Below are positions 48,763 to 62,832 of a DNA stretch of 64,000 nucleotides, piece after piece. Each line of letters begins with the position of its first letter. Position 1 is the first letter of the stretch. The stretch covers positions 28,679 through 92,678 of the forward strand of contig DAHUYQ010000010.1 of assembly GCA_027315115.1 (NCBI GenBank). The letters are read 5' to 3'. The notes beneath the pieces are model-generated. The model made no database searches, had not been told where the DNA came from, and saw only the letters and a list, made by a program, of their open reading frames with translations. The stretch is from Solirubrobacterales bacterium. Its GTDB lineage: Bacteria > Actinomycetota > Thermoleophilia > Solirubrobacterales > Solirubrobacteraceae. The position numbers and the translations under genes were made by a program.

Positions 48763-49506
48763 ATGATCAAGCTCTTGTACTGCCTGCGCCGCCGTCCGGA
48801 GTTGACCCTTCAGGAGTTTCAGCAGCATTGGGCCGAGCACCATTCCCAGTTCGGCCGCGCCAACCGGCAGGTTCTGCGCTACGTGCAATACCACGCGCTG
48901 CAGGACGACCCGATCCGGCAGGCGCTGCCGCAGGCCGGCGCGGGACACGATGACCCGGCCCCCTACGACGGCATGGCCGCCGCGTGGTTCGAGAGCCCGA
49001 GCGCGCTCGCCGAGAGCATGACCTCCCCGAACGTCGCGGCGGCTCTCGAGGACGAGAAGCTGTTCATCGATCACTCCCGCTCCAGCGCGGTCCTTTGCGA
49101 TGAGCATGTGATCGTCGAGCCGGAAGGGCAGGGCCCGATCGTGCTGGTCGAGTGTCTTGCGCGCCGCGCGGACATCGACCGCCGCTTCTTCAGCGAGCGC
49201 TGGCTGGCGCACGGGCACATCGGACGCAAGGCCAACGAGCTCGGCCTGCTGCAGGGCTACATCCAGAACCATGCGCTCGTTGAGGACGACGCGCGCGTGC
49301 GCGAGCTCGAGAAGCTGGGGACCGCGGCGCAAGGGTGGGACGGGATCGTGACCGCCTACTTTCACAGCATCGCGGTGGCAAAGGCGCTGTTCGGCAACCC
49401 GCTCGCCTCAGAGGAGTCCTTCGAGGACGAGAAGCAGTTCATAGACCACAGCAAGGGTCAGTACATGCTCGCGCGCAGGCACGTGGTCAAGGACTTCGTG
49501 CGCTGA
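48763..49506 (+). CDS. Tandem EthD-domain protein
   Basis: EFQQHWAEHH, RYVQYH, YDGMAAAWF...EDEKLFID, then a second GYIQNH/WDGIVTAYF/EDEKQFID. Confidence 0.85.
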   Translation: MIKLLYCLRRRPELTLQEFQQHWAEHHSQFGRANRQVLRYVQYHALQDDPIRQALPQAGAGHDDPAPYDGMAAAWFESPSALAESMTSPNVAAALEDEKLFIDHSRSSAVLCDEHVIVEPEGQGPIVLVECLARRADIDRRFFSERWLAHGHIGRKANELGLLQGYIQNHALVEDDARVRELEKLGTAAQGWDGIVTAYFHSIAVAKALFGNPLASEESFEDEKQFIDHSKGQYMLARRHVVKDFVR

Positions 49507-49532
49507 GCGGGCGCCGATACGGGAGTCATTCG

Positions 49533-50621
49533 ATGATCGAGCCATATACAGCAGTCGCTCTCTCACCGCGCGTGTCCGCGTGCGCCGACCGCGGCGACTA
49601 CATGCGCAACATCGAGCACATCAAGTCATTCATGGACACCGCCTACGGCATGGCGAGCACCGATGGCCCGCCGGTCAAGCTGATGGTGCTCCCCGAGGGC
49701 GCCTTCCAAAGCCTGCTGGTGGACTTTCGCGGCGGAGATCGGCGTCGCGAGGCAGAGATGGCGGTCGAGATACCCGGCCCCGAGACGGCGGCGCTGGGCG
49801 AGAAGGCGCGCGACCTCGGGACGTTCATAGCCGGCAACGCCTACGTCGTGCGCGACGACGACTTCCCCGACCGCTACTTCAACCGCGCGTTCCTCATAGA
49901 CCCGCGGGGCGACGTGGTCTACACGCGAACCAAGCTGCAGGTGGAGCCCTTCGAGCCCGAGGTGGTCAGCACCTGCGTGCCGCATGACGTCTGGGACCGG
50001 TGGATCGAGGTGAAGGGAAATGGCGATCCGATGCAGGCGCTCTACCCGGTCGCCGACACCGAGATAGGCCGCATCGGAATGATCATCTGCATGGAGGGTG
50101 GATACCCCGAGATCGGCCGGGGCCTGGCCCTGAACGGCGCGGAGATACTGCTGCGGCAGGTCTACCACGAGCCGTATGTGAGCAATGGATGGTGGGAGCT
50201 GCAGAGCCGCTCCTTCGCGGTGGCCAACAACGCCTACGTCGTGGCGCCCAACCTCGGGCCGCAGAGCTACAGCTTCGACGGGCCGCTGTATGACATCGGC
50301 GGGGGCAAGTCGATGATCGTCGACTTTCGCGGCCACGTGATGGTTCAGCGCGAGTTTGCCGCCGCCGACACATTCGTCTCCGAGTGCCTGGACGTCGAGG
50401 CGCTGCGGCGCTACCGCAGCCAGAACGGGTTCGGCCGCTGGTTCAAGGACCTGCGGATGGAGCAGTTCGCCGCTATCTACCAGCGGCCGATCTATCCGAA
50501 GAACCAGTACCTGGAGGAGCCTCCGACGGAGGGATGGGGAGAGCGCGAGCAGGCCGTGCTGGCGGCGAACATCGAGCGTCTGAAGCAAGGGGGAGTGCTG
50601 GCGTCGCCCGCCGGCGCCTGA
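49533..50621 (+). CDS. Nitrilase-related carbon-nitrogen hydrolase
   Basis: Triad candidates: LPEG Glu, TRTK Lys, IICMEG Cys. Confidence 0.85.
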   Translation: MIEPYTAVALSPRVSACADRGDYMRNIEHIKSFMDTAYGMASTDGPPVKLMVLPEGAFQSLLVDFRGGDRRREAEMAVEIPGPETAALGEKARDLGTFIAGNAYVVRDDDFPDRYFNRAFLIDPRGDVVYTRTKLQVEPFEPEVVSTCVPHDVWDRWIEVKGNGDPMQALYPVADTEIGRIGMIICMEGGYPEIGRGLALNGAEILLRQVYHEPYVSNGWWELQSRSFAVANNAYVVAPNLGPQSYSFDGPLYDIGGGKSMIVDFRGHVMVQREFAAADTFVSECLDVEALRRYRSQNGFGRWFKDLRMEQFAAIYQRPIYPKNQYLEEPPTEGWGEREQAVLAANIERLKQGGVLASPAGA

Positions 50622-50733
50622 GCCGAGTCGCTCTCTGTGCGGGACGAGGAGGGGAAGCCCGCGGGTCTGCTGCAAAAACGACGCGTCCATCGAACGCCCT
50701 GCCAAGCACGGCTGCTGAAAGGAGCAGACTTCC

Positions 50734-51612
50734 ATGCCCGAACCCGTATTTCCGCACACGGAGTCCAAGGTGCGCGACGTGCGCCAGGTCAACTGGGACT
50801 TCCGCGGCGAGGTGGTCCTGATCACCGGCGCCGCGCACGGACAGGCCCGCACCCATGCCCTCGCCTTCGCGAAGGCCGGCGCGAGCCTCGCCCTCTGCGA
50901 CGTCTGCGAGAACGTGGCCAGCATTCACTACCCGATGGGCACGGAGGCCGAGCTGGAGCAGACGGCCGAGCTTTGCCGTGCGCAGGGCGCGACCGTCATC
51001 ACGCGCAAGTGCGACGTCCGCAGCGACGCCCAGGTGAGCGCTTTCGTCGAGGACGCTGTCGCCGAGCTTGGCCAGATCGACATCGCGATCGCGAACGCCG
51101 GCGTCGCCTCCATCGTCGAGGTCGCGGACATGAGCGAGCAGGAGTGGGACGTGCTGCTCGACATCAACCTGAAGGGCGTCTTCCTCACGCTCAAGCACGT
51201 GGCTCGCCAGATGATCGAGGCCGGCGGCGGAGGCCGACTGATCGCCACCGGCTCGGTGCACAGCTTCACCGGCGTGCCCGGCAGCGCGCACTACGTGGCC
51301 TCCAAGCATGGTGTCGCCGGCCTATGCAAGTCGCTCGCGATCGAGCTTGCTCCGCACAAGATCCGCGTCAACTACGTCTGCCCGACGGCGGCCAACACGC
51401 ACATGGTCGAGGCGATGAACGATCCGCGCGTTCCCGCCGACCACGGCGAGCGTCTGTTCGCCACCACGGGTAGCTGGAACATGCTCGACTACGGCTCACC
51501 GCCCATCGAACCATGCGAGATCACCCAGGCGATCATGTGGCTCGCCTCGGACTCCTCGATGTACGTCACCGGCGCCGCGCTGCCCGTGGACGCCGGCTTT
51601 CTGACCAAGTAA
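50734..51612 (+). CDS. Mycofactocin-coupled SDR oxidoreductase
   Basis: ITGAAHGQARTHA, SIHYPMGTEAELEQT insertion, HYVASKHG, CPTAANT. Confidence 0.9.
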   Translation: MPEPVFPHTESKVRDVRQVNWDFRGEVVLITGAAHGQARTHALAFAKAGASLALCDVCENVASIHYPMGTEAELEQTAELCRAQGATVITRKCDVRSDAQVSAFVEDAVAELGQIDIAIANAGVASIVEVADMSEQEWDVLLDINLKGVFLTLKHVARQMIEAGGGGRLIATGSVHSFTGVPGSAHYVASKHGVAGLCKSLAIELAPHKIRVNYVCPTAANTHMVEAMNDPRVPADHGERLFATTGSWNMLDYGSPPIEPCEITQAIMWLASDSSMYVTGAALPVDAGFLTK

Positions 51613-51674: not shown

Positions 51675-51797
51675 CACTTGTCCGCAGCGTGGACGGCAGA
51701 TCGCCGCTATGCGGCGACAACTCGCCGGTGTCTCAGCAGGGAACTGAGCACGGGGGGATGGAGGACGACTACCCACATGAGCAGAGGTGACTGGAAT

Positions 51798-53054
51798 ATG
51801 AAAATGAGACGGCTCGCTGCCGGCTTTCTGATCCTGCTGGCGATCCCAGTGGCGATCGCGGCCTGCGGGGGCTCTAGCAAATCGTCGAGCAGCGAAAAAG
51901 AAGAATCGAGCTCGACCAAGAGCAAGGGCACCATCAACGTCGGCAACATCTCCTCGATCGCCAATCTCGGAGGCACATTCAACGCATTCCGAGCGGGCGT
52001 GGAGGCGTACTTCGAATACAACAACGCCAAGGGCGGCGTGGACGGCTACAAGGTCAACCTCACGGCGCTTGACGACGAAGCCAACCCGAGCAAGGCCACG
52101 CAGGACGCGCGCACGCTCGTGGACGAAAACAAAGTCGTGGCGATCGTCGGTGAGGCGAGCCTCGCCGATGCGGCGACGCAGAAGTACTTCGAAGCGCAGA
52201 ACATCCCCGTGATCGGGGGCTGGGCCACCAGCAGCGGCTGGGAGAGCCCTTCCAAGAACATGTTCGTGAGCCTGCAGGGCCCGCAGAAGCCTGACTGCGT
52301 GGTGTGGTCCAACTACACCGCCAAGGCGCTGGGGATCAAGAAGATGGCCTTCATCGCCGAAGACTTCCCGGACGCGGTGGCGGACGCCGAATGCCGCGAG
52401 GCGGGCGCGAAGTACGAGGGCATCGAAGTGCTCGGCAAAATCATCACGACCTCGCTGACGCAGACCGACTACCGGCCCGCGATCCAGCAGGCGATGGCGA
52501 CCGGAGCCGAAGCGATCTACTTCTCGACCGGCGCCGGTGGGCAGATCCACGGCATGGAAGCGGGCGTGCAGCTCGGCTTCAAAGGCCTCTACATCGCGAC
52601 GCAGCCCTCGGGTCTGCTCAAGCCGCTCGCGCCGATCGCGAGCAAGCTGGAAGGTCACCTGATCACGGAGGCCTTCTCGTTGATGCCCAACGACCCGAGC
52701 TCCTACAGCCCCGAACTGGCGGCGTTCAAGGAAGGCATGGCGAAGTACCAGCCTGAATACAAGAACGAAATCACCGCGGTGAGCGGCTGGGCGGCGGGCG
52801 TCGAGTTCGCGGAAGCGCTCAAGAACGCCGGCCCCAACGGCCCGAAGATGATCGAATTCATGAAAAAACTCACGAAATTCGACTTCGGCGGGCTACAGGG
52901 TGAAATGAGCTACACCGAAGGCAGCCTGCCGAACACCTGCACGCTGCCGCTGACCATCAAGAACGACGAATGGGTACGCGCATCGAACGCAAGCAAGCCG
53001 CCCGCGTTCAACTGCAACCCGTTGGTCAACCTCGAAGGCAAGGAACTCAAATAA
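51798..53054 (+). CDS. ABC substrate-binding lipoprotein (branched-chain-type)
   Basis: Lipobox IAAC, Ser/Lys linker, GGVDGYKVNL..LDDEANP. Confidence 0.9.
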   Translation: MKMRRLAAGFLILLAIPVAIAACGGSSKSSSSEKEESSSTKSKGTINVGNISSIANLGGTFNAFRAGVEAYFEYNNAKGGVDGYKVNLTALDDEANPSKATQDARTLVDENKVVAIVGEASLADAATQKYFEAQNIPVIGGWATSSGWESPSKNMFVSLQGPQKPDCVVWSNYTAKALGIKKMAFIAEDFPDAVADAECREAGAKYEGIEVLGKIITTSLTQTDYRPAIQQAMATGAEAIYFSTGAGGQIHGMEAGVQLGFKGLYIATQPSGLLKPLAPIASKLEGHLITEAFSLMPNDPSSYSPELAAFKEGMAKYQPEYKNEITAVSGWAAGVEFAEALKNAGPNGPKMIEFMKKLTKFDFGGLQGEMSYTEGSLPNTCTLPLTIKNDEWVRASNASKPPAFNCNPLVNLEGKELK

Positions 53055-53106
53055 CCCTGGTCGGCAATGACGCCGTGCTGACCGAATAAGAAAGACGCCT
53101 GCGACC

Positions 53107-55020
53107 ATGTTCAACGCCACTCTGCTCATATCAGTGCTCGCAACAGCGATGATCTACCTGTTTGCGACCTACGGGCTCGTGGTGACCTACAGGGTCGCGG
53201 GCGTCTTCAACTTCGCCCTGGGCTTCCAGGCGGCATTCTCGGCGTTCGTCTACTGGCAGATGGTCACGGGCTGGCACATCGACCGCTACCTGGCGGCCGC
53301 GCTGGTGGTGCTCGTGATCTCGCCGATCTTCGGCATCGCCGTCCAGCAGTCCCTCTTCCGCAGGCGGCGCGAGATCCTCTCGGCGATCATCATCACGCTC
53401 GGGCTCGGCACGGGCCTTGACGGACTGATCGGCGTGCTGTGGGGAGAGAGCGCCGAAGTGCGCACCGCGCCCTCGCTGTTCGGGCGCAAGTATTGGCACA
53501 TCGGCCACGCGGTGCTCACCGCCAACGAGGTCGGTGTGATGGCGATCGCGATCGTGGTGGGCCTGCTGGTCTGGCTTCTGATGAGCCGTAGCCGGCTCGG
53601 CCTTCAGATGCGCGCCGCGGTCGACGATCCGGAGCTGGCCGGCGCGACCGGCACCCCCTACGGCCGCGTGGGGTCCTCGGCCTGGATCATCGGGGTGATG
53701 CTCGCCTCGATCGCCGGCATCATGCTGGCCCCCGAAGTCAATCTCGAAGTCAACCTGCTCAACGCGCTTGTGGTCAACGCCTTCGCGGTGGTCGCCTTCA
53801 GCGGCATGACCAGCCTGCGGATGGCGGTGCTGGGCGCTCTGATCCTCGCCTACGCCCAGGCGCTGGTCCAGCGCTACCCGGAAGTCTTCTCCTTCGTCGG
53901 CGCCGGCGCGCCCGACGTTGTGCCGTTCGTGATGCTCGGGATCGTGCTGCTCGTGCACCCGGCGGCACGCCGCACGGTGCGCGTGGTGGGCGGCGGGATG
54001 CAGCGGCGGCTGCGCGAGCGCGCGTCCGGCAACTTCTCCTTCGCGCTGGTGCTCGGCGTGCTGCTCACGGTGGTGGCGCTGCTGCTCAACCAGTCGTGGG
54101 CGTTTGCCGCCGAGCTCTCCGCCTGCTACGCGCTGGCCGCGCTCTCGCTGGTCCTGCTCGTCGGCGCCTCGGGGCAGATCTCGCTGTGTCAGGTCTCGTT
54201 CATGGGCATCGGCGCGATAGTGCTTGGACAGCTCAGTTCCCTGCCCTGGGGTGTTGGGCTGATCATCGCGGTGGCGGCCGCGGCGGCCGCGGGCCTGCTG
54301 GTCTCTCTGACGGCGTTTCGCCTGCGCGGGCTGTTCCTGGCGCTCGTGACCTTCGCCTTCGCCTACGCGGTCAACGTGCTCCTGTTCGAAAACCCGCGCG
54401 TGATCAGCTTCGCCGGCCTGACCGTGGCGCGGCCGGCCTTCTTCGGCATCGACTTCGTCAACGAACGCAACTTCCTCATCCTGCTCACCGTGATCGTGCT
54501 CGTGGCGATCGCGATCGTCGGCACCATCCTGAAGGGGCCGTGGGGCAGGGCGCTGCAGACGCTCAGCGCCGGCGACTCCGTGGCCAGCGTGTCCGGGCTC
54601 TCGGTGCGCACGTGGAAGATGGTGGTGTTCACCGTCTCGGCGGGCATCGCGGGGCTGGCCGGCGCGCTGTTCGCGGCGGTCAACCAGACGGTGACGGGCA
54701 GCTCGTTCATCCCCGAGCAGTCTGTGTTCCTGCTGGTCTTCGTCGTGGTCGGCGGCGTGACCACGCCCGTCGGCGCTCTGATGGCCGGAGTGATCGCCGG
54801 GGCAAGCGGGCAGATCCTGCACCTGGTCGTGGCCAACCCCGGCTCGTGGTCGCTGGTGCTCTTCGGGGTGATGGCGATTCAGATGGCGATCCAGTACCCG
54901 GCCGGCTACGGCGGGATGCTGCCGCGCTCGCTGCCCGGCCTGGAGCGCCTCGGCGCCCGGCTGCGGACGCGCTTCCTCGAAAAGGAGCCGGTCCCACCGC
55001 TTGCGGGGAACACGCCATGA
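53107..55020 (+). CDS. Fused LivH-LivM-type ABC permease
   Basis: SRLGLQMRAAVDD unit and GQISLCQ/GPWGRALQTL unit in one ORF. Confidence 0.88.
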   Translation: MFNATLLISVLATAMIYLFATYGLVVTYRVAGVFNFALGFQAAFSAFVYWQMVTGWHIDRYLAAALVVLVISPIFGIAVQQSLFRRRREILSAIIITLGLGTGLDGLIGVLWGESAEVRTAPSLFGRKYWHIGHAVLTANEVGVMAIAIVVGLLVWLLMSRSRLGLQMRAAVDDPELAGATGTPYGRVGSSAWIIGVMLASIAGIMLAPEVNLEVNLLNALVVNAFAVVAFSGMTSLRMAVLGALILAYAQALVQRYPEVFSFVGAGAPDVVPFVMLGIVLLVHPAARRTVRVVGGGMQRRLRERASGNFSFALVLGVLLTVVALLLNQSWAFAAELSACYALAALSLVLLVGASGQISLCQVSFMGIGAIVLGQLSSLPWGVGLIIAVAAAAAAGLLVSLTAFRLRGLFLALVTFAFAYAVNVLLFENPRVISFAGLTVARPAFFGIDFVNERNFLILLTVIVLVAIAIVGTILKGPWGRALQTLSAGDSVASVSGLSVRTWKMVVFTVSAGIAGLAGALFAAVNQTVTGSSFIPEQSVFLLVFVVVGGVTTPVGALMAGVIAGASGQILHLVVANPGSWSLVLFGVMAIQMAIQYPAGYGGMLPRSLPGLERLGARLRTRFLEKEPVPPLAGNTP

Positions 55021-55784
55021 GCGGGCCGGTGTTGCAGGCGCGCGACGTGACGCTGCGCTTCGGCGGCTTTGCCGCACTCGACAAATTCAACCTGGAGGTG
55101 CGGCCCGAAGAGGTGCACGGGCTGATCGGGCCAAACGGCGCGGGCAAGACCACCTCCTTCGACGTGATCACCGGCGTCTACCGCCCCAACGAGGGCTCCG
55201 TGCTGCTGGAGGGGCGGGACATCACGCGCTGGCGCTCGCACCGGCGCACGCGGGCCGGCATCGGCCGCTCCTTCCAGACGGTCGGGCTCGCGCCCGGACT
55301 GACCTCGCACGGCAACGTGCTGGCGACCGTGGAGGCCGTGCAGCGAGTGTGGGCGCCGTTCCCGGCTCCCGCCGCCAGGGCGCGCAGGCGCGCCGAAGCC
55401 GACGAGCTGCTCGCGTTCTTCGGGCTCCAGGACGTCGCCGACACGCAGGTCACCGAGCTTCCGCTCGGGCTCACCAAGCTGCTGGAGCTGGCCAAGGTCT
55501 TCGCCGGGCAGCCGAAGGTCGTGCTGCTGGACGAGCCGTTCGCGGGCCTCTCCACCGGTGAGGCGAGCGAGCGGGTGAAGCTGATCTCGGAGCGACGCAA
55601 GCAGGCCAGAACCGGTGTGGTCATCGTCGAGCACGACGTGCCGCTGCTGCTCGACCTGTGCGACACCCTGACAGTCCTGGATGCCGGCTCGGTCGCGGTC
55701 TCCGGCATCCCGCATGAGGTGATGTCCGACGCCGCCGTGCGGGAGGCATACATGGGCGAGGTAGTGGAGGAGGCGGGCGTATGA
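55017..55784 (+). CDS. ABC ATPase (LivG-like)
   Basis: GPNGAGKT, RSFQ, VLLDEPFAG, EHD. Confidence 0.92.
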   Translation: MSGPVLQARDVTLRFGGFAALDKFNLEVRPEEVHGLIGPNGAGKTTSFDVITGVYRPNEGSVLLEGRDITRWRSHRRTRAGIGRSFQTVGLAPGLTSHGNVLATVEAVQRVWAPFPAPAARARRRAEADELLAFFGLQDVADTQVTELPLGLTKLLELAKVFAGQPKVVLLDEPFAGLSTGEASERVKLISERRKQARTGVVIVEHDVPLLLDLCDTLTVLDAGSVAVSGIPHEVMSDAAVREAYMGEVVEEAGV

Positions 55785-56590
55785 GCGCGGGCTCCCAGCC
55801 GGACTCGCAGGGCGCGCAGTCGGTGCTGCAGGTCAGGGACCTCGAGGTCCACTACGGGCCGCTGACGGCGCTGCAGGCCACGAGCTTCGACGTCGCCGCC
55901 GGCGAGATCGTCGTGCTGCTCGGCGCAAACGGGGCGGGCAAGTCCTCGCTGCTGAAGGCGATCATGGGCCTGGAGCCGATCGCGGCGGGCACGGCGTCCT
56001 TCGACGGGCGCGACCTTGGCCGCCTGCCCTCCCACAGACGGGCGCGTCTCGGCATCGGTTATGTGCCCGAGGGGCGGGGCGTGTTCCCGACGATGAGCGT
56101 CGAGGAGAACATCTTCGTGGGACTGCGCAAGGACGGCGCACGGGAGAAGGTGCTGAGCACCGTCTTCGAGCTCTTCCCGGTGCTCTCCGAGCGCCGCCGC
56201 CAGGTCGCCGGCTCGATGTCCGGCGGTGAGCAGCAGATGCTCGCTCTGGCGCGCGCGCTGGCCGGCGAGCCGCGCCTACTGCTGATCGACGAGCTCTCGC
56301 TCGGGCTGGCGCCGAAGATAGTGGCGCGCCTGTTCGAGAAGGTCGCGCAGCTTCGCGACTCGGGCATCTCGATCCTGCTGGTGGAGCAGTTCGCACACGC
56401 GGCACTGCGCGTCGCCGATCGCAGCGGCGTGTTCGTGCGCGGCGAGATGACGGCGTTCGGCGCGGCCGCCGAGCTGGCGGCGCTGACACCCGCCCAACTG
56501 ACCGAAATGTACTTCGGAACCCGTGGTTCCAACGTTGCCAACGGCAGCGAGGCTGCGGCCAACTCGACAACGGAGGTGCAACAGCAATGA
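55781..56590 (+). CDS. ABC ATPase (LivF-like)
   Basis: GANGAGKS, MSGGEQQM, LLIDELSLGLAP. Confidence 0.92.
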   Translation: MSAGSQPDSQGAQSVLQVRDLEVHYGPLTALQATSFDVAAGEIVVLLGANGAGKSSLLKAIMGLEPIAAGTASFDGRDLGRLPSHRRARLGIGYVPEGRGVFPTMSVEENIFVGLRKDGAREKVLSTVFELFPVLSERRRQVAGSMSGGEQQMLALARALAGEPRLLLIDELSLGLAPKIVARLFEKVAQLRDSGISILLVEQFAHAALRVADRSGVFVRGEMTAFGAAAELAALTPAQLTEMYFGTRGSNVANGSEAAANSTTEVQQQ

Positions 56591-57594
56591 GCGTTGTGGC
56601 CAAGACGCCGTCGCTCGTAGGGATGTACGAGTCGATCAAGCGCATTCGCGAGTTCGAGGAGACCGCGATCTCACTCTTCCAGGACGGGATCGTCCCGGGC
56701 TTCACCCACACCTACATCGGCCAGGAGGCCGTCGCGGTCGGTGTCTGCTCCGCGCTCACGCCCGGCGATCGCGTGGCATCCAACCACCGCGGCCACGGGC
56801 ACATCATCGCCCGCGGCGCCGACACCTCGCGGATGCTGGCCGAGATCCTCGGCAAGAAGGACGGATACCTGCAGGGGATGGGGGGCGAGCTCCACATCAT
56901 GGATGCGAGCATCAACATCATCGGCGCCAACGGGATCGTCGGAGCCGGCATCCCGATCGCGGTCGGCGCGGCCCTCTCAGACCAGATGCAGGGCAACGAC
57001 AACGTGACCGTGAGCTTCTTCGGCGACGGCGCCACCAGCGAGGGTTACTTCGCGGAGGCGATGAACCTCGCTGCGATCTGGCGCCTTCCGATCGTCTTCG
57101 TCTGCGAGAACAACATGTACGGGGAGTTCACTCCTGCCGCCGAGGTCTGCGCCGGCGTCATCTACAAGCGCGCGGAGGGCTATGGGATTCCGGGCGTCGA
57201 GGTGGACGGACAGGACGTGGTCGCGGTGCGCGACTGCGCGCTGGAGGCAGTGGAGCGCGCGCGCAGCGGCGGCGGCCCCACGCTGATAGAGGCCAAGACG
57301 TACCGCTGGTACGGCCACTTCTACGGCGAGGAGGCGATGATCGGCAGCTACTCCTACCGCAGCAACGAGGAGATCGCGGACTGGAAGCAGAACCGCGATC
57401 CGGTCACGCTCACGCGCCAGCGCGTGCTCGACGAGGGCATTGCCGAGGAGGCCGAGCTGGCCCGCGTCGACCAGGCGATCGCGGAGGAGATGAAGCGGGC
57501 CTCGGAGTTCGCCCAAAGCTCGCCGCTGCCGCCCGCGGAGCAGGCGCTCGACTTCATCTTCGCCGAGCCCGTCTACGGGCCCGCACAGGCCTGA
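56587..57594 (+). CDS. TPP-dependent dehydrogenase E1 alpha (AcoA/PdhA-like)
   Basis: HRGHGH, FFGDGA...VCENN TPP motif, TYRWYGH. Confidence 0.93.
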   Translation: MSVVAKTPSLVGMYESIKRIREFEETAISLFQDGIVPGFTHTYIGQEAVAVGVCSALTPGDRVASNHRGHGHIIARGADTSRMLAEILGKKDGYLQGMGGELHIMDASINIIGANGIVGAGIPIAVGAALSDQMQGNDNVTVSFFGDGATSEGYFAEAMNLAAIWRLPIVFVCENNMYGEFTPAAEVCAGVIYKRAEGYGIPGVEVDGQDVVAVRDCALEAVERARSGGGPTLIEAKTYRWYGHFYGEEAMIGSYSYRSNEEIADWKQNRDPVTLTRQRVLDEGIAEEAELARVDQAIAEEMKRASEFAQSSPLPPAEQALDFIFAEPVYGPAQA

Positions 57595-57610
57595 AAGGAC
57601 CAAGCTGAAA

Positions 57611-58597
57611 ATGCCACGCAACATCACCTACATCCAGGCGCTCAAAGAGGCCATCGACGAGGAGATGGCTCGCGACGAGTCCGTCTTCGTAATGGGCGAG
57701 GACGTCGTCGTGGGGACCTTTGGCGTCACCACCGGACTGGCGGACACATACGGCACCAGCCGAATCCGCAACACGCCGATCTCCGAGGCGGGATTCGTGG
57801 GCGCCGGCCTCGGCGCCGCGATCGCCGGGTCGCGGCCGATCGTGGAGGTCGAGTTCGCGAGCATGGTCTACATGTGCTTCGACCAGCTCGTCAACCAGAT
57901 CGCCAAGACCCGTTACATGAGCGGCAACCAGGCGCACGCGCCGTTGACGATTCGCACCGCGGTGGCGATGGGACTCTCCGCCGGCGCCCAGCACTCCGAC
58001 ACGCCGCACGCGCTGTTCATGCACATGCCGGGCCTCAAGGTCGTCGTGCCCTCCGGGCCGCGCGACGCGAAGGGTCTGCTCAAGACGGCGATCCGCGACG
58101 ACGACCCGGTCATCTTCCTGGAGAACATGGTGCTCGCCGCCAGCAAGGGCGAGGTGCCCGACGAGGAGGAGCTGATCCCCTTCGGCCAGGCCAACCTCGT
58201 GCGCGAAGGCCAGGATCTGACGATCGTGGCGCTCGGATCGGCGCTGCCGCCGGCGCTCGCCGCCGCCGACGCGCTGATCGCGGAGGGCGTCTCGGTCGAG
58301 CTGCTGGACCCGCGCACGCTGGTGCCGATGGACTGGAAGGCGCTGTTCGCCTCCGCGCGCAAGACCGGCCGCGTGGTGGTGGTCGACGACGCCACGCCCT
58401 ACTGCTCGTTCGCAAGCGAGGCGTGCGCGGCGATCGCCGAGTACTGCTTCGACGATCTCAAGGCGGCGCCCCGCCGCGTCACGCGCGAGAACACGCCGGT
58501 GCCGTTCTCGCCCCCGATGGAGCAGCACATCCTGATCAACCAGGAAAAGGTGGAGAACGCCTGCCGCGGGCTGCTCTCGCTTGAGGCCGCTCGATGA
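57611..58597 (+). CDS. TPP-dependent dehydrogenase E1 beta
   Basis: MGEDV, NTPISE, AQHS, DDPVIFLE. Confidence 0.93.
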   Translation: MPRNITYIQALKEAIDEEMARDESVFVMGEDVVVGTFGVTTGLADTYGTSRIRNTPISEAGFVGAGLGAAIAGSRPIVEVEFASMVYMCFDQLVNQIAKTRYMSGNQAHAPLTIRTAVAMGLSAGAQHSDTPHALFMHMPGLKVVVPSGPRDAKGLLKTAIRDDDPVIFLENMVLAASKGEVPDEEELIPFGQANLVREGQDLTIVALGSALPPALAAADALIAEGVSVELLDPRTLVPMDWKALFASARKTGRVVVVDDATPYCSFASEACAAIAEYCFDDLKAAPRRVTRENTPVPFSPPMEQHILINQEKVENACRGLLSLEAAR

Positions 58598-58833
58598 GGC
58601 GCGAGGTGAAGATCCCCAAGTGGGGGCTGACGATCGAGAAAATGACCATCCTCTCCTGGCTCGTCAAGGTCGGGGACGAGGTGAAGAAGGGCGACGCGCT
58701 CTGCGAGGTCGACACCGACAAGGCGCAGACCGATCTCGAATCGCCCGCGGACGGGCGCGTGGTCGAGCTGTCCGTGCAGGAGGGCGACGAGTGCACGGTC
58801 GGCCAGACGATCGCGGTGCTGGAGACCGAGTGA
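58594..58833 (+). CDS. Stand-alone lipoyl domain
   Basis: 79 aa, EVDTDKA lipoylation motif; stop immediately after the domain. Confidence 0.9.
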   Translation: MRREVKIPKWGLTIEKMTILSWLVKVGDEVKKGDALCEVDTDKAQTDLESPADGRVVELSVQEGDECTVGQTIAVLETE

Positions 58834-58873
58834 GCGGCGCCCATCCCAGAGCTCAACGACCAACGAGGTGACC

Positions 58874-59698
58874 ATGGAGAAGCGATTCGAGGGCAAGGTT
58901 GCGTTCATCACAGGCGCGGCGCGCGGCCAGGGCCGCTCGCACGCGCTGAACTTCGCGCGTGAAGGAGCCGCCGTCGCGGTGTCCGACATCTGCGCCGATG
59001 TCGCGACCGTGCCCTACGGCCTGAGCAAAGACGGCGACCTGGAGGAGACGGTCCGCCTCTGCGAAGCGGAGGGCGTGCGCGCGATCTCCGCGCGCGTGGA
59101 CGTGCGCGACTACGAGCAGGTGGCGGCCTTCGCCGCGCGCACGCGCGAGGAGCTCGGTGAGATCGACGTGCTCGTCGCGAACGCGGGGATCTTCACCTTC
59201 GGAACGCTCACCGAGATGAGCTCAGAGCAGTTCGACGACATGATCGACACGAACCTGAAGGGCACCTGGCACACCGTCAAGGCGGTGGTGCCCGGCATGG
59301 CGGAGCGCAAATACGGGCGGGTCGTGATCATCGGCTCCTCGGCCTCGCTGATCGGGTATCCGAACGTCGGTCACTACGTGGCCAGCAAGCACGCCGTCTG
59401 GGGGCTGACCAAGAGCCTCGCCCTGGAGCAGGCCCCGAACAAGGTCACAGTGAACTGCGTCTGCCCGACGGGGGTGCACACGACCATGCTGGAAAACGAG
59501 GCGGCCTACGCCCTGATGAACCCGGAGAACCCCACGCTCGAAGGCGCGCTGCCGGCGCTGGCGTCGTTGAACCCGCTCGGCGATCCGTGGCTGGAGCCCG
59601 AAGACGTCTCGCGCATGGTCCTCTTCCTGGCCTCCGACGAAGCGCACTACATCACCGGCGCGGAGTTCAAGGTGGACATGGGGCTGACGGCGCCGTGA
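58874..59698 (+). CDS. Mycofactocin-coupled SDR oxidoreductase
   Basis: ITGAARGQGRSHA, VATVPYGLSKDGDLEET insertion, HYVASKH, CPTGVHT. Confidence 0.92.
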   Translation: MEKRFEGKVAFITGAARGQGRSHALNFAREGAAVAVSDICADVATVPYGLSKDGDLEETVRLCEAEGVRAISARVDVRDYEQVAAFAARTREELGEIDVLVANAGIFTFGTLTEMSSEQFDDMIDTNLKGTWHTVKAVVPGMAERKYGRVVIIGSSASLIGYPNVGHYVASKHAVWGLTKSLALEQAPNKVTVNCVCPTGVHTTMLENEAAYALMNPENPTLEGALPALASLNPLGDPWLEPEDVSRMVLFLASDEAHYITGAEFKVDMGLTAP

Positions 59699-59737
59699 GC
59701 GGATCGTGCAAGTCAAATCGATCGGGAGGCCAATGAG

Positions 59738-60106
59738 ATGAAGCGCACCGTTCTGCACGTCTTCGACGAGGGCGAGAAGACCCGTTTCAGGGATGGCGAG
59801 GTCGAGCTCGCCGCGATCGAGGGCGTCTCGCCCGGGGGCGTCTTCGACGCCGCGTCGCTCGGTGAGGGCGCGGTCGCGCTGGCGGTCTTCGCGGCGGGCT
59901 TCAACTGCGGCTTTCACAACAGCCCGGCGCCGACGTGGATGTTCATGATGACCGGCGAGATGGAGTTGGAGGTCAGCGACGGCGAGAGCCGCAGGATCGC
60001 CGCCGGGGACCTGGTGCACTTCGCCGACGCGAGCGGCCAGGGCCACCGCTCGCGGGTGCTCGGCGACCAGGACGTCGTGGTGGCCACCGCAGGGTTCGCG
60101 CCCTGA
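59738..60106 (+). CDS. Cupin-domain protein
   Basis: FHNSPAPTW.F.MTGEMELEVSDG, DASGQGHRS. Confidence 0.85.
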   Translation: MKRTVLHVFDEGEKTRFRDGEVELAAIEGVSPGGVFDAASLGEGAVALAVFAAGFNCGFHNSPAPTWMFMMTGEMELEVSDGESRRIAAGDLVHFADASGQGHRSRVLGDQDVVVATAGFAP

Positions 60107-60148
60107 GAACCAGACCGCGCGTCATTCGGGCGCGCGTAAAGGAGGAGC

Positions 60149-61396
60149 ATGCTTTTCAACCGGCCTCGCGCCCATGAGAAGATGGAGCAGTACGGCGTGG
60201 ACGCCATCGTGGGCGCCACGCCGAGGAACTTCTACTACGCCTCCGAGTACTGGACGACGGTGGCGAAATGGGGCCATCAGGAGAACATCTTCGCCGCGAT
60301 CGTGCCGCACGACGAGAGCGTCGAGGCGCAGATGGTGATACCCGAGGGCTTCTTCGGGAACATCTTCTTCTATCCGACTTGGATACCGAAGGTGCGCCCG
60401 GTGGAGATGATGAACACCTCCGTGATCGCGCACGAGCCCGAGGAGGTGCGGCTGGAGCCCTTCCAGTCCGATGCGGAGGCCGCCTACGCGCAGCGCGTGG
60501 TGGCGCCGCTGGCCGAGAGCCTGATCGAGGGCATCGTCGAGGGTCTGATGGACATGGGCCTGGCCTCCGCGCGGGTCGCCTTCGACGATCTGAGGATCGC
60601 CGGATACGTGAAGGCGAGGCTTGACGCGCTGCAGGTGGTCGACGGCCACGACCTTTGGCTGGACATTCGCAAGGTCAAGACCCCGGAGGAGATCGAGCGG
60701 CTGCGGATCGGCGCGAGGATCAACCAGGACGCGATCGAGCACGTCATCCCGATGATCGAGCCGGGCGCAGTCTGGGGAGAGATCGCCGGCGCCTACTGCC
60801 AGTTCGTGCGCGACCACGACGCGGAGGTGATCGCGCCCGAGCGCGCGCTGCAGTTCGGCAGCCAGTACGAAGGCGAGTACTACCCGGACATGCTCTTCGG
60901 CGACGTCGATTGGCGTGTGCGCGAGGGCAAACCGATCATCTTCGAGAGCTGGGGCACCTACAAGGACTACCACTTCGACTTCTCCCGCACCGTGTTCGTG
61001 GGTGAGCCGAGCCGCGAGTACGTCGAGATGTGCGAGCGGATACATGCGGCCTGGCAGGAGGGCATCCAGAGCAAGCTGCGTCCTGGCATCAGCACGAGCG
61101 AGCTGTTCAAGAGCGGCATGGAGCTGCTCTACGACGCGGCCGACGTGCCCACGCCGAAGAAGACGCTGCCGTTCTTTCACAGCATCGGCCTTGACATCAT
61201 CGAGCACCCGAGCGGATATCCGGCATTCGGACGCCTGAAGCCGTGGGACATCGAGGAGAACACCGTCCTCAACTGTGAGTTCCTCTATTTCGGCCACACG
61301 CTCGACCCGTTCCACATCGAGAGCACGTTCGTGGTCACGGCCGACGGGGCCGAATGCTTCCAGACGATGCCCGAGAAGCTGCGGATACTGGTCTGA
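60149..61396 (+). CDS. M24 family hydrolase (Xaa-Pro peptidase/creatinase fold)
   Basis: KTPEEIERL, YHFDFSRT, HSIGL, NCE, HIE. Confidence 0.85.
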   Translation: MLFNRPRAHEKMEQYGVDAIVGATPRNFYYASEYWTTVAKWGHQENIFAAIVPHDESVEAQMVIPEGFFGNIFFYPTWIPKVRPVEMMNTSVIAHEPEEVRLEPFQSDAEAAYAQRVVAPLAESLIEGIVEGLMDMGLASARVAFDDLRIAGYVKARLDALQVVDGHDLWLDIRKVKTPEEIERLRIGARINQDAIEHVIPMIEPGAVWGEIAGAYCQFVRDHDAEVIAPERALQFGSQYEGEYYPDMLFGDVDWRVREGKPIIFESWGTYKDYHFDFSRTVFVGEPSREYVEMCERIHAAWQEGIQSKLRPGISTSELFKSGMELLYDAADVPTPKKTLPFFHSIGLDIIEHPSGYPAFGRLKPWDIEENTVLNCEFLYFGHTLDPFHIESTFVVTADGAECFQTMPEKLRILV

Positions 61397-61397
61397 T

Positions 61398-62084
61398 ATG
61401 AGCTCAGAGGAGAACGCACAACAGGACGAGGTCTCCACGCGCGTGCCGCTGTCGCGGATGCGACGTGCGATAGCCGCCTCGATGAACGTGAGCGCCCAGG
61501 TGCCGCAGTTCACGCTCGACCGAGCCGTCGGGCTGGCGCAGGCGGCCGCCCTGCGCGAGCGGCTGCGCGCCGGCGGCGCGGCCGCGTCCTGGGAAGACCT
61601 GCTGGTGGCCGCGTGCGCTCGGGCGCTGCGCGAGCACCCGTGGGTCAACGCGAGCTTCGACGATGACGGGATCGAGCTGCACTCCGGGATCAACATCGGC
61701 CTGGCGACCGCGTTGGAGGACGGGCTGGTCAGCCCCGCGGTGCTCGACGCGGACAAGCGCACGCTCGCCGAGCTCGGCGAGGCGCGGCGTGAGCTCCGGG
61801 AGAAGGCGGCGAGCGGCGGCCTGCGCGGCGCCGTGCTCTTCGGCGCGACGTTCACGATCTCCAACCTCGGCCCGTATGGCATCGACCGCTTCAGGGCGCT
61901 GGTGATTCCCCCGCAGGCAGCGATCCTCGCCTGCGGGCGGATCATGGAGATCGACGGGGAGCCGAGCATGAGCCTCACGCTCTCCTGCGATCACCGCGTC
62001 CTGGATGGGGCGCCCGCGGCGCGCTTCCTGGCCAGCGTCTGCTCGCTGCTGAGCGAGCCAGCCTGGCTGCAGGAGCTGGCCTGA
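61398..62084 (+). CDS. 2-oxoacid dehydrogenase E2 acyltransferase, catalytic domain only
   Basis: Starts at PLSRMRRAIA; TFTISNLG, LSCDHRVLDG; no lipoyl or subunit-binding domain. Confidence 0.9.
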   Translation: MSSEENAQQDEVSTRVPLSRMRRAIAASMNVSAQVPQFTLDRAVGLAQAAALRERLRAGGAAASWEDLLVAACARALREHPWVNASFDDDGIELHSGINIGLATALEDGLVSPAVLDADKRTLAELGEARRELREKAASGGLRGAVLFGATFTISNLGPYGIDRFRALVIPPQAAILACGRIMEIDGEPSMSLTLSCDHRVLDGAPAARFLASVCSLLSEPAWLQELA

Positions 62085-62144
62085 TCGGGCGCGGGCCTCC
62101 GGCCGGGGCGCTGGCATCCCTCGGCGGCGCCCCGCCGCCTGCCC

Positions 62145-62651
62145 TCAGCCAAGCGCCTCTTCGCACTCCGGGGGATCGTGGGCGCCGCACTCGGCATCCG
62201 GGCACTCGTGTGCCGGAAGCTGGTCCCCAGCCGCCCGCAGCAGGAGGGCGTGGAGGGTGTCGCGCTCCTCTTCGCTGAGCGCTCCGAGCACGCGGTCCTC
62301 GACGCAGGCCAGCCGCTGCTCGGTGTCCTGCAGCGCCGCGTGCCCGTCGTGTGCGAGCTGCACGATGTGGCGGCGCCTGTCGCTCGGGTCTCGCGTGCGG
62401 CTGATCAGATGACGCTGCTCGAGCTCGTTGAGCAGGCCGACGAGGTTGCTGGGGTCCAGGCGTAGCGCCTCCGCGAGGCCCTGCTGGCCGACCGCGCCGT
62501 GGTCGCGCAGCAGAGTGAGCGCTACGAGGTGCCTGGGACGCAGCCCGCCGCCGTCGAGCACGGCGTCGGCCTCCCGGCGCGCAACTCGTGAGAGGTGGTT
62601 GAGCAGCGCGAGTGACTGATGCGCCGCGGCCTGCTTGGCGGTCGTGGCCAT
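62145..62651 (-). CDS. MarR-family regulator
   Basis: QQGLAEALRLDPSNLVGLLNELE..LISR.RDPSDRRRH. Confidence 0.93.
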   Translation of the reverse strand: MATTAKQAAAHQSLALLNHLSRVARREADAVLDGGGLRPRHLVALTLLRDHGAVGQQGLAEALRLDPSNLVGLLNELEQRHLISRTRDPSDRRRHIVQLAHDGHAALQDTEQRLACVEDRVLGALSEEERDTLHALLLRAAGDQLPAHECPDAECGAHDPPECEEALG

Positions 62652-62733
62652 GAGGCAATGGTAGTGGCGCCGGGGAGCGTCGCAACGTCCGGCGCGGCCG
62701 CCGCGACCGGCGACCGGCCACGGAGCCAGCCGC

Positions 62734-62762
62734 TTGCTAGCTTACCAAACGATCGGTAGATT
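62734..62762 (+). promoter_or_regulatory. Promoter with a palindromic operator in the spacer
   Basis: TTGCTA-N17-TAGATT enclosing ACCAA-acga-TCGGT (62744-62757). Confidence 0.55.
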
Positions 62763-62832
62763 ACGGGTGACCCCCGCCTTCAGGGACGAATCTCAGCCGG
62801 CGGCTGCCGGCGCAACGAAAGGGAGCGCATAG

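Follow-up and report, generated by a model that had tools for sequence, protein, structure and literature searches.

How could a 2-oxoacid dehydrogenase operate if the parts of its acyltransferase were made as separate proteins? The textbook complexes rely on covalent tethering, in that the lipoyl arms and docking domains carried on the acyltransferase (E2) core give active-site coupling. The question is raised by a stretch of 64,000 nucleotides from contig DAHUYQ010000010.1 of a Solirubrobacterales bacterium (positions 28679-92678, hereafter the window; contig C24 in our labelling), in which the genes for the two subunits of a thiamine diphosphate (ThDP)-dependent dehydrogenase, E1α and E1β, are followed by a gene for a free-standing lipoyl domain and, after three further genes, by one for a bare E2 catalytic domain. 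We conclude that the split of this E2 is genuine and conserved. The genes appear to form part of a long catabolic operon for an imported compound, whose 2-oxoacid or acyloin dehydrogenase, judged from its sequences, probably works unassembled. The source is a metagenome-assembled genome (MAG) of 3.33 Mb in 65 contigs, 90.65% complete. Domains were assigned from Pfam and NCBIfam profile matches to the open reading frames (ORFs) of the window, and relatives were collected in a scan with one genome per species that yielded 80 loci (labelled L021 onward), in which neighboring genes were counted within 10 kb of the core.

A free lipoyl carrier and a bare acyltransferase core

An earlier, sequence-only reading of the window had described the gene order E1α, E1β, lipoyl domain, short-chain dehydrogenase/reductase (SDR), cupin, M24 hydrolase and E2 catalytic domain, and had stated that no peripheral-subunit-binding domain (PSBD) is encoded there; the ORFs and their profile matches (Table 1) agree with it on both points. 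The lipoyl gene begins with an ATG that overlaps the stop codon of the E1β gene by 4 bases (ATGA), and the predicted lipoyl-lysine of its 79-residue product is K43 (codon 58720-58722, motif DTDKAQ). The best NCBIfam match of this carrier was the acetoin E2 model PRK14875 (81.7 bits, domain only). The same reading had likened it to the H-protein of glycine cleavage, GcvH. The likeness is useful as an analogy, but the carrier is an E2-type lipoyl domain and not an H-protein; it matched PF00364 strongly, while its match to the H-protein family PF01597 extended over 38 residues only and, at 22.1 bits, fell short of the cut-off of 22.2.

The most likely start of the E2 gene is the ATG at 61398, which a single base (T) separates from the stop codon of the M24 gene. 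A start at the GTG at 61275 was rejected, as it lies inside the M24 gene (122-base overlap) and homologs begin at the later ATG. The product thus defined has 13 residues ahead of the first catalytic-domain strand and lacks a lipoyl domain, a linker and a PSBD. It is an E2 acyltransferase by its CAT-fold domain, in which S155 (TISNLG) and H199 (DHRVLDG; codon 61992-61994), the serine and the DHRxxDG histidine of the family, are retained; the residues of both motifs were invariant in an alignment of the bare core with 25 relatives, which also revealed a conserved P-x-W-L segment at the C-terminal end of the core family. The best relative of known structure was the human pyruvate dehydrogenase (PDH) E2 core, 3b8k. 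The lipoyl domain that a conventional E2 carries on the same polypeptide is here a separate ORF 2.5 kb upstream, and three unrelated genes (SDR, cupin and M24) stand between carrier and core. A search with PF02817 detected no PSBD in the operon proteins or on the contig at E<=0.1, and over the whole genome, at the same threshold, the only PSBDs were those of three canonical E2 genes on other contigs.

One could envisage that the stop codon behind the lipoyl domain came about through misassembly or a frameshift error, or that it marks the recent decay of a normal E2 into a pseudogene, and the origin of the sequence in a 65-contig MAG makes such errors conceivable. However, carrier and core are set apart by three other genes, and the carrier stop (58831-58833, after ...ETE) occupies an identical position in L022 and comes two codons further on in L021. 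Independent assemblies agree: the closest cores in the databases were proteins of 210-240 residues with PF00198 only, one of them 92% identical and likewise of 228 residues, and an E1α with 97% identity is encoded on an independent 148-kb JGI contig. Furthermore, more than 30 other genomes share the split, and the stop codon of the lipoyl gene overlaps the start codon of the core gene (ATGA or GTGA) in L024, L028, L030, L042 and L048, as would be typical of separate cistrons that are translationally coupled. Given the conserved stop, the agreement between assemblies and the overlapping stop and start codons in many genomes, together with the invariant catalytic residues, we reject an artefact or a pseudogene, an explanation that is almost certainly wrong.

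The earlier proposal of a split E2 is thus upheld, and the scan extends it to many genomes with separate frames. At the 80 loci, when the core was at least 48% identical to the one in the window, the lipoyl domain lay in another frame or was absent nearby, with five exceptions; all loci with cores of 47% identity or less had ordinary fused E2 genes. In the closest relatives, L021 and L022, the lipoyl gene is likewise free and the core bare; L023 keeps the bare core, and altogether the split recurs in about 35 other genomes. Full-text searching of the literature gave no description of a fully split E2, nor of a link between mycofactocin and lipoyl systems.

Descent and distribution of the split

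In a maximum-likelihood tree of 101 E2 catalytic domains, all 34 split or orphan cores fell into one clade (SH-aLRT support 97), a clustering that is descriptive and not a statistical test, because the split and fused labels were drawn from the feature itself. The clade also contains two fused genes, L040 and L045, and both retain a PSBD between lipoyl domain and core, which fits a fused ancestor from which linker and PSBD would have been lost later. The members are mostly Thermoleophilia (Solirubrobacterales and Gaiellales) and Actinomycetes, along with one alphaproteobacterium of the Stellaceae; cultured bearers of the split are Streptosporangium sp. NPDC051022, Mycolicibacter longobardus DSM 45394, Mycobacterium deserti and Antrihabitans sp. 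YC2-6. What stands between carrier and core varies. In some genomes there is nothing, in L031 and L037 a gene of the MR/MLE enolase superfamily, in L047 and L050 a GntR/FCD regulator, and on a Thermoleophilia chromosome (L038:5775-8233) a ferredoxin-reductase-like flavoprotein and a cytochrome P450. Neither an E1 nor a lipoyl gene lies within 10 kb of nine cores that form a tight subclade from Gaiellales and Actinomycetes MAGs (L025-L027, L029, L032-L034, L036 and L046); at L025 the core comes after an SBP_bac_5 binding-protein gene, and the context of that locus is uninformative.

The order of the seven genes, for which the sequence-only reading had called for a check of synteny, is not conserved as a unit. 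A shared module, E1-lipoyl-SDR-second SDR-cupin, was seen in L021 (Thermoleophilaceae) and L022 (Solirubrobacterales) only, and in both the bare core lies nearby on the opposite strand. Identities within the module range from about 52% to 82% (E1β 82%; M24 77% in L021; cupin 52-58% in L021 and L022). The M24 gene was seen only in L021, the L022 locus ending before that position. A query with the E2 catalytic domain found no ortholog of the core among 24 genomes of the same genus, and a sample of 400 genomes from the phylum yielded no ortholog of the M24 protein or of the split-clade core. Among the genomes sampled, the operon thus counts as a rare accessory trait, and it was probably acquired horizontally.

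A different placement of a lipoyl domain was seen in the PDH operons of Armatimonadota (L065, L067, L070, L074, L075, L083, L084, L087, L093, L097 and L100), which show an extra lipoyl match between E1α and E1β. This is probably an N-terminal lipoyl domain of E1β, as in PRK11892.

Supply of E3 and proposed action of the separated parts

The operon has no gene for lipoamide dehydrogenase (E3). In accordance with the earlier statement that the window lacks an E3, a search with TIGR01350 gave no lipoamide dehydrogenase there, and its only matches on contig C24 were 35-40-residue flavin adenine dinucleotide (FAD) motifs. Two full LpdA genes are present elsewhere in the genome (C11:108944-110296 and C58:12940-14328). 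The second is directly followed at its 3' side by lipB and lipA (G000:C58:12940-16962), so that an E3 clusters with the lipoylation machinery. With two LpdA genes, LipB and LipA, and three canonical E2s encoded elsewhere, the simplest reading is that E3 is borrowed from elsewhere in the cell. This was one of two options that the sequence-only reading had offered, and the two LpdA genes make it plausible.

The other option was that another acceptor replaces E3. The dihydrolipoyl carrier might then be re-oxidized, for instance, by a mycofactocin-linked or another flavoprotein route. The SDR of the operon scored above the cut-off of TIGR03971, the model of mycofactocin-coupled SDRs, and the genome contains mftC, the mycofactocin radical-SAM gene, which lies on the same contig (about 42682-43695 of the window, 634 bits); the operon is 13 kb from this mft cluster. 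Besides this proximity and the lack of an operon E3, the rarity of E3 genes near split cores speaks for such a route, LpdA being found within 10 kb of only 1 of about 35 split loci (L039). However, many canonical loci likewise have no E3 nearby, the genome has two bona fide LpdA genes, and we know of no mycofactocin client that acts on lipoyl groups. An amine-oxidase-like flavoprotein encoded downstream was considered as a stand-in for E3 and rejected; only its FAD motif matched, it lacks the disulfide-reductase dimerization domain (Pyr_redox_dim), and it is not conserved in the relatives. We regard E3-independent recycling as very unlikely, and as the least likely of the three alternatives to a carrier with a borrowed E3 that are considered in this section.

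In the region of the first LpdA gene (L101:8933-11647; G000:C11:108932-111646) we noted a second bare E2 catalytic domain, of 232 residues and 35% identical to the operon core. It lies about 650 bases downstream of LpdA, and neither an E1 nor a lipoyl domain or PSBD is encoded close by. Both of its motifs deviate, with DHRIVYG at the histidine and TLTDS in place of TISNLG, and for this reason it may be non-catalytic or associated with E3.

The most economical reading of the locus is that the free lipoyl carrier would serve both E1 and the bare core. Several features of it were observed directly: the gene content, the intact motifs for catalysis and lipoylation, the lack of a PSBD, a split that is conserved, and genes for LpdA, LipB and LipA at other sites in the genome. 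On the family chemistry of the encoded proteins, the substrate would be taken up by the Liv-type ABC system and converted by the mycofactocin-coupled SDR, the cupin and the M24 metallohydrolase into a 2-oxo or α-hydroxy-keto intermediate. E1αβ with ThDP would then cleave this intermediate and reductively acylate the lipoyl group on K43 of the 79-residue carrier, and the acylated carrier would diffuse to the bare core, where H199 and S155 would hand the acyl group to CoA. Finally, one of the two housekeeping lipoamide dehydrogenases would re-oxidize the dihydrolipoyl carrier without docking, as L-protein does with H-protein. What we infer from these parts is that the carrier diffuses, that E3 is shared, and in which order and by which chemistry the tailoring steps proceed. 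Isolated lipoyl domains are competent E1 substrates, as classic work with PDH domains established. In actinobacterial OdhA, a lipoyl-less E2 domain uses lipoyl groups supplied in trans (PMC10415282).

Several observations weigh against such a freely diffusing arrangement. The genome holds three canonical E2s with PSBDs, and E1 could therefore dock on a housekeeping core. The core is also not strictly tied to this E1 and carrier, as its position on the opposite strand in L021 and L022 and the nine cores without E1 or lipoyl genes indicate. In addition, the sequences are compatible with a non-covalent assembly of carrier, E1 and core.

The first of these points leads to a hybrid complex, in which the operon E1 would dock on the PSBD of a canonical E2 core, and carrier and bare core would be accessory or specialized acyl-transfer parts of a mixed supercomplex comparable to the corynebacterial PDH/ODH hybrid. 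The PSBD-bearing E2s would provide the docking sites, and OdhA is a precedent for lipoyl domains and E3 shared between systems (PMC10415282). Nevertheless, the operon encodes a dedicated lipoyl domain and acyltransferase in translational coupling with E1, and the split set moves as a unit into genomes of different classes, which would be needless if host cores served. We regard a hybrid as unlikely.

A stable particle encoded in pieces, in which carrier and E1 would bind the bare core through interfaces that replace PSBD and linkers, also appears improbable to us. Canonical E2 cores use their C-terminus for trimer-trimer contacts, and since the core family keeps its C-terminal P-x-W-L segment, a large core may still form. 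Furthermore, the translational coupling of the lipoyl gene to E1β or to E2 would favor a matched stoichiometry. On the other hand, neither the Pfam search nor the genome search with PF02817 detected a docking element in these proteins, and in relatives the distance between carrier and core varies from 0 to 6.7 kb with unrelated genes between them, or the two lie on opposite strands.

Our preferred reading, a free carrier that moves between E1 and the bare core, leads to a broader and tentative proposal. The split clade may represent a fully untethered acyl-generating dehydrogenase, made up of a diffusible carrier, a docking-less core and a shared E3; as a module of three pieces it would have spread through Actinomycetota, reached at least one alphaproteobacterium and entered diverse catabolic operons. 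A more radical version, with the carrier recycled by a non-E3, mycofactocin-linked route, is very improbable indeed. If the proposal were correct, an entire natural clade could do without the swinging-arm tether; a conserved clade that runs with separate carrier and core, and without a docking domain, would mean that the chemistry can work as a loose system. The split set would also offer a minimal group of small soluble parts with which to gauge what tethering contributes, and the split marks a set of catabolic operons, here tied to mycofactocin redox chemistry.

The surrounding operon and its relation to known systems

All genes from 51678 to 62084 are encoded by the plus strand, and neighbors either overlap by 4 bases or are separated by very short gaps (Table 1). 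At the head of the operon are genes of an ATP-binding cassette (ABC) importer. L022 encodes a homolog of its binding protein with 57% identity, in an equivalent place relative to the E1 genes. The ORF of the LivG/UrtD-like ATPase, as listed, overlaps the permease frame, and its true start is probably at about 55000, because the ABC domain begins near 55077. A scan for promoters and terminators gave signals at chance level only. Just upstream of the ABC genes on the same strand (48763-51612), Pfam matches alone identify a two-domain EthD protein, a carbon-nitrogen hydrolase and another SDR, and these genes suggest an amide or a nitrile group in the operon substrate. The E2 core is followed, before the next gene on the plus strand, by about 750 bases (62085-62832) of 73-74% G+C, in which the sole long ORF, on the minus strand, encodes 248 residues without a Pfam match.

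Table 1. Genes of the plus-strand operon, with their coordinates in the window and the profile matches on which each assignment is based
Feature	Coordinates	Strand	Basis of assignment
Liv-type periplasmic substrate-binding protein, head of operon, ABC importer	51678..53054	+	PF13458 Peripla_BP_6, 153 bits
Branched-chain-amino-acid-type ABC permease	53107..55020	+	PF02653 BPD_transp_2, 158 bits, two permease stretches
LivG/UrtD-like ABC ATPase	54096..55784 (as listed)	+	PF00005, residues 328-483; TIGR03411, 187 bits, under cut-off
LivF/UrtE-like ABC ATPase	55781..56590	+	PF00005, 108.7 bits; 4-base overlap with each neighbor
ThDP-dependent E1α (PDH/acetoin type)	56587..57594	+	PF00676, 278 bits; TIGR03182 (PDH equivalog), 333.8 bits, cut-off 393.85
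E1β	57611..58597	+	PF02779, PF02780; PRK09212, 312.8 bits, under cut-off 321
Free-standing E2-type lipoyl domain, 79 residues	58594..58833	+	PF00364, 80.7 bits
Mycofactocin-coupled SDR (SDR subfamily 1)	58868..59698	+	TIGR03971, 350.2 bits, cut-off 300
Small cupin	59738..60106	+	Cupin_2, 25.1 bits, just below cut-off 27.2
Creatinase/prolidase-type M24 hydrolase	60149..61396	+	PF00557, 68.6 bits
Bare E2 acyltransferase catalytic domain, 228 residues	61398..62084	+	PF00198, 187 bits

Among solved structures, E1α was most similar to the human or mitochondrial type of PDH E1α (236 bits), ahead of the branched-chain 2-oxoacid dehydrogenase (BCKDH) type and Geobacillus PDH (139 bits or less), and its score with the NCBIfam PDH equivalog was below the cut-off. 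The nearest metagenomic homologs bear a mixture of automatic names, acoA (acetoin oxidoreductase) or pdhA, and we take an acetoin-type E1 only as a lead. The sequence-only reading had suggested that the SDR could make an α-hydroxyketone (acyloin) from a diol. In its favor, SDR genes are frequent neighbors of split-E2 loci, which would fit a step that oxidizes an alcohol and so yields the carbonyl compound on which E1 acts. The Atlas neighbors of the cupin are unnamed cupin clusters, without informative relatives, and a look-up of the M24 protein there returned generic names only. The M24 protein belongs to its family by PF00557 and retains the set of metal ligands; in the five columns that we take to be the metal ligands of Pyrococcus furiosus prolidase 1pv9, it reads E, D, H, E and E, with the first D replaced by E. 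It is probably an active hydrolase, judged by these residues, and DoeA and the prolidases are only remote relatives of it.

The locus shares its catalytic parts with the canonical complexes built on a heterotetrameric E1 (Geobacillus and human PDH; BCKDH), namely E1α and E1β, an E2-type lipoyl domain with the DKA lysine, and a CAT-fold core with the DHRxxDG histidine and the TISNLG serine. It differs from them in that lipoyl domain and core are separate proteins, and there are no linkers, PSBD or operon E3. The acetoin system AcoABCL resembles it as a catabolic, inducible-type operon in which a PDH-like E1αβ stands beside an SDR; moreover, the carrier best matches the acetoin E2 model, and several close E1α homologs are automatically named acoA. 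Unlike that system, however, the operon has neither a fused E2 of the AcoC type nor a dedicated E3 (AcoL), the LpdA genes being on contigs C11 and C58, and the names of the homologs are mixed with pdhA. To our knowledge, the known aco operons contain no M24, cupin or amino-acid-type ABC genes.

The OdhA (KGD) system is similar in having an E2 domain whose lipoyl groups are supplied in trans, but the E2 domain of OdhA is fused to E1o and its lipoyl groups are carried on a full E2p scaffold (PMC10415282), whereas in the operon described here core and carrier are free-standing small proteins. Glycine cleavage, in which the H-protein works with the P-, T- and L-proteins, offers a working analogy, as a small free lipoyl protein visits separate enzymes and the lipoamide dehydrogenase is undocked. 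In contrast to GcvH, the carrier of this operon is of the E2 type, and its predicted chemistry would be the transfer of an acyl group to CoA rather than of an aminomethyl group.

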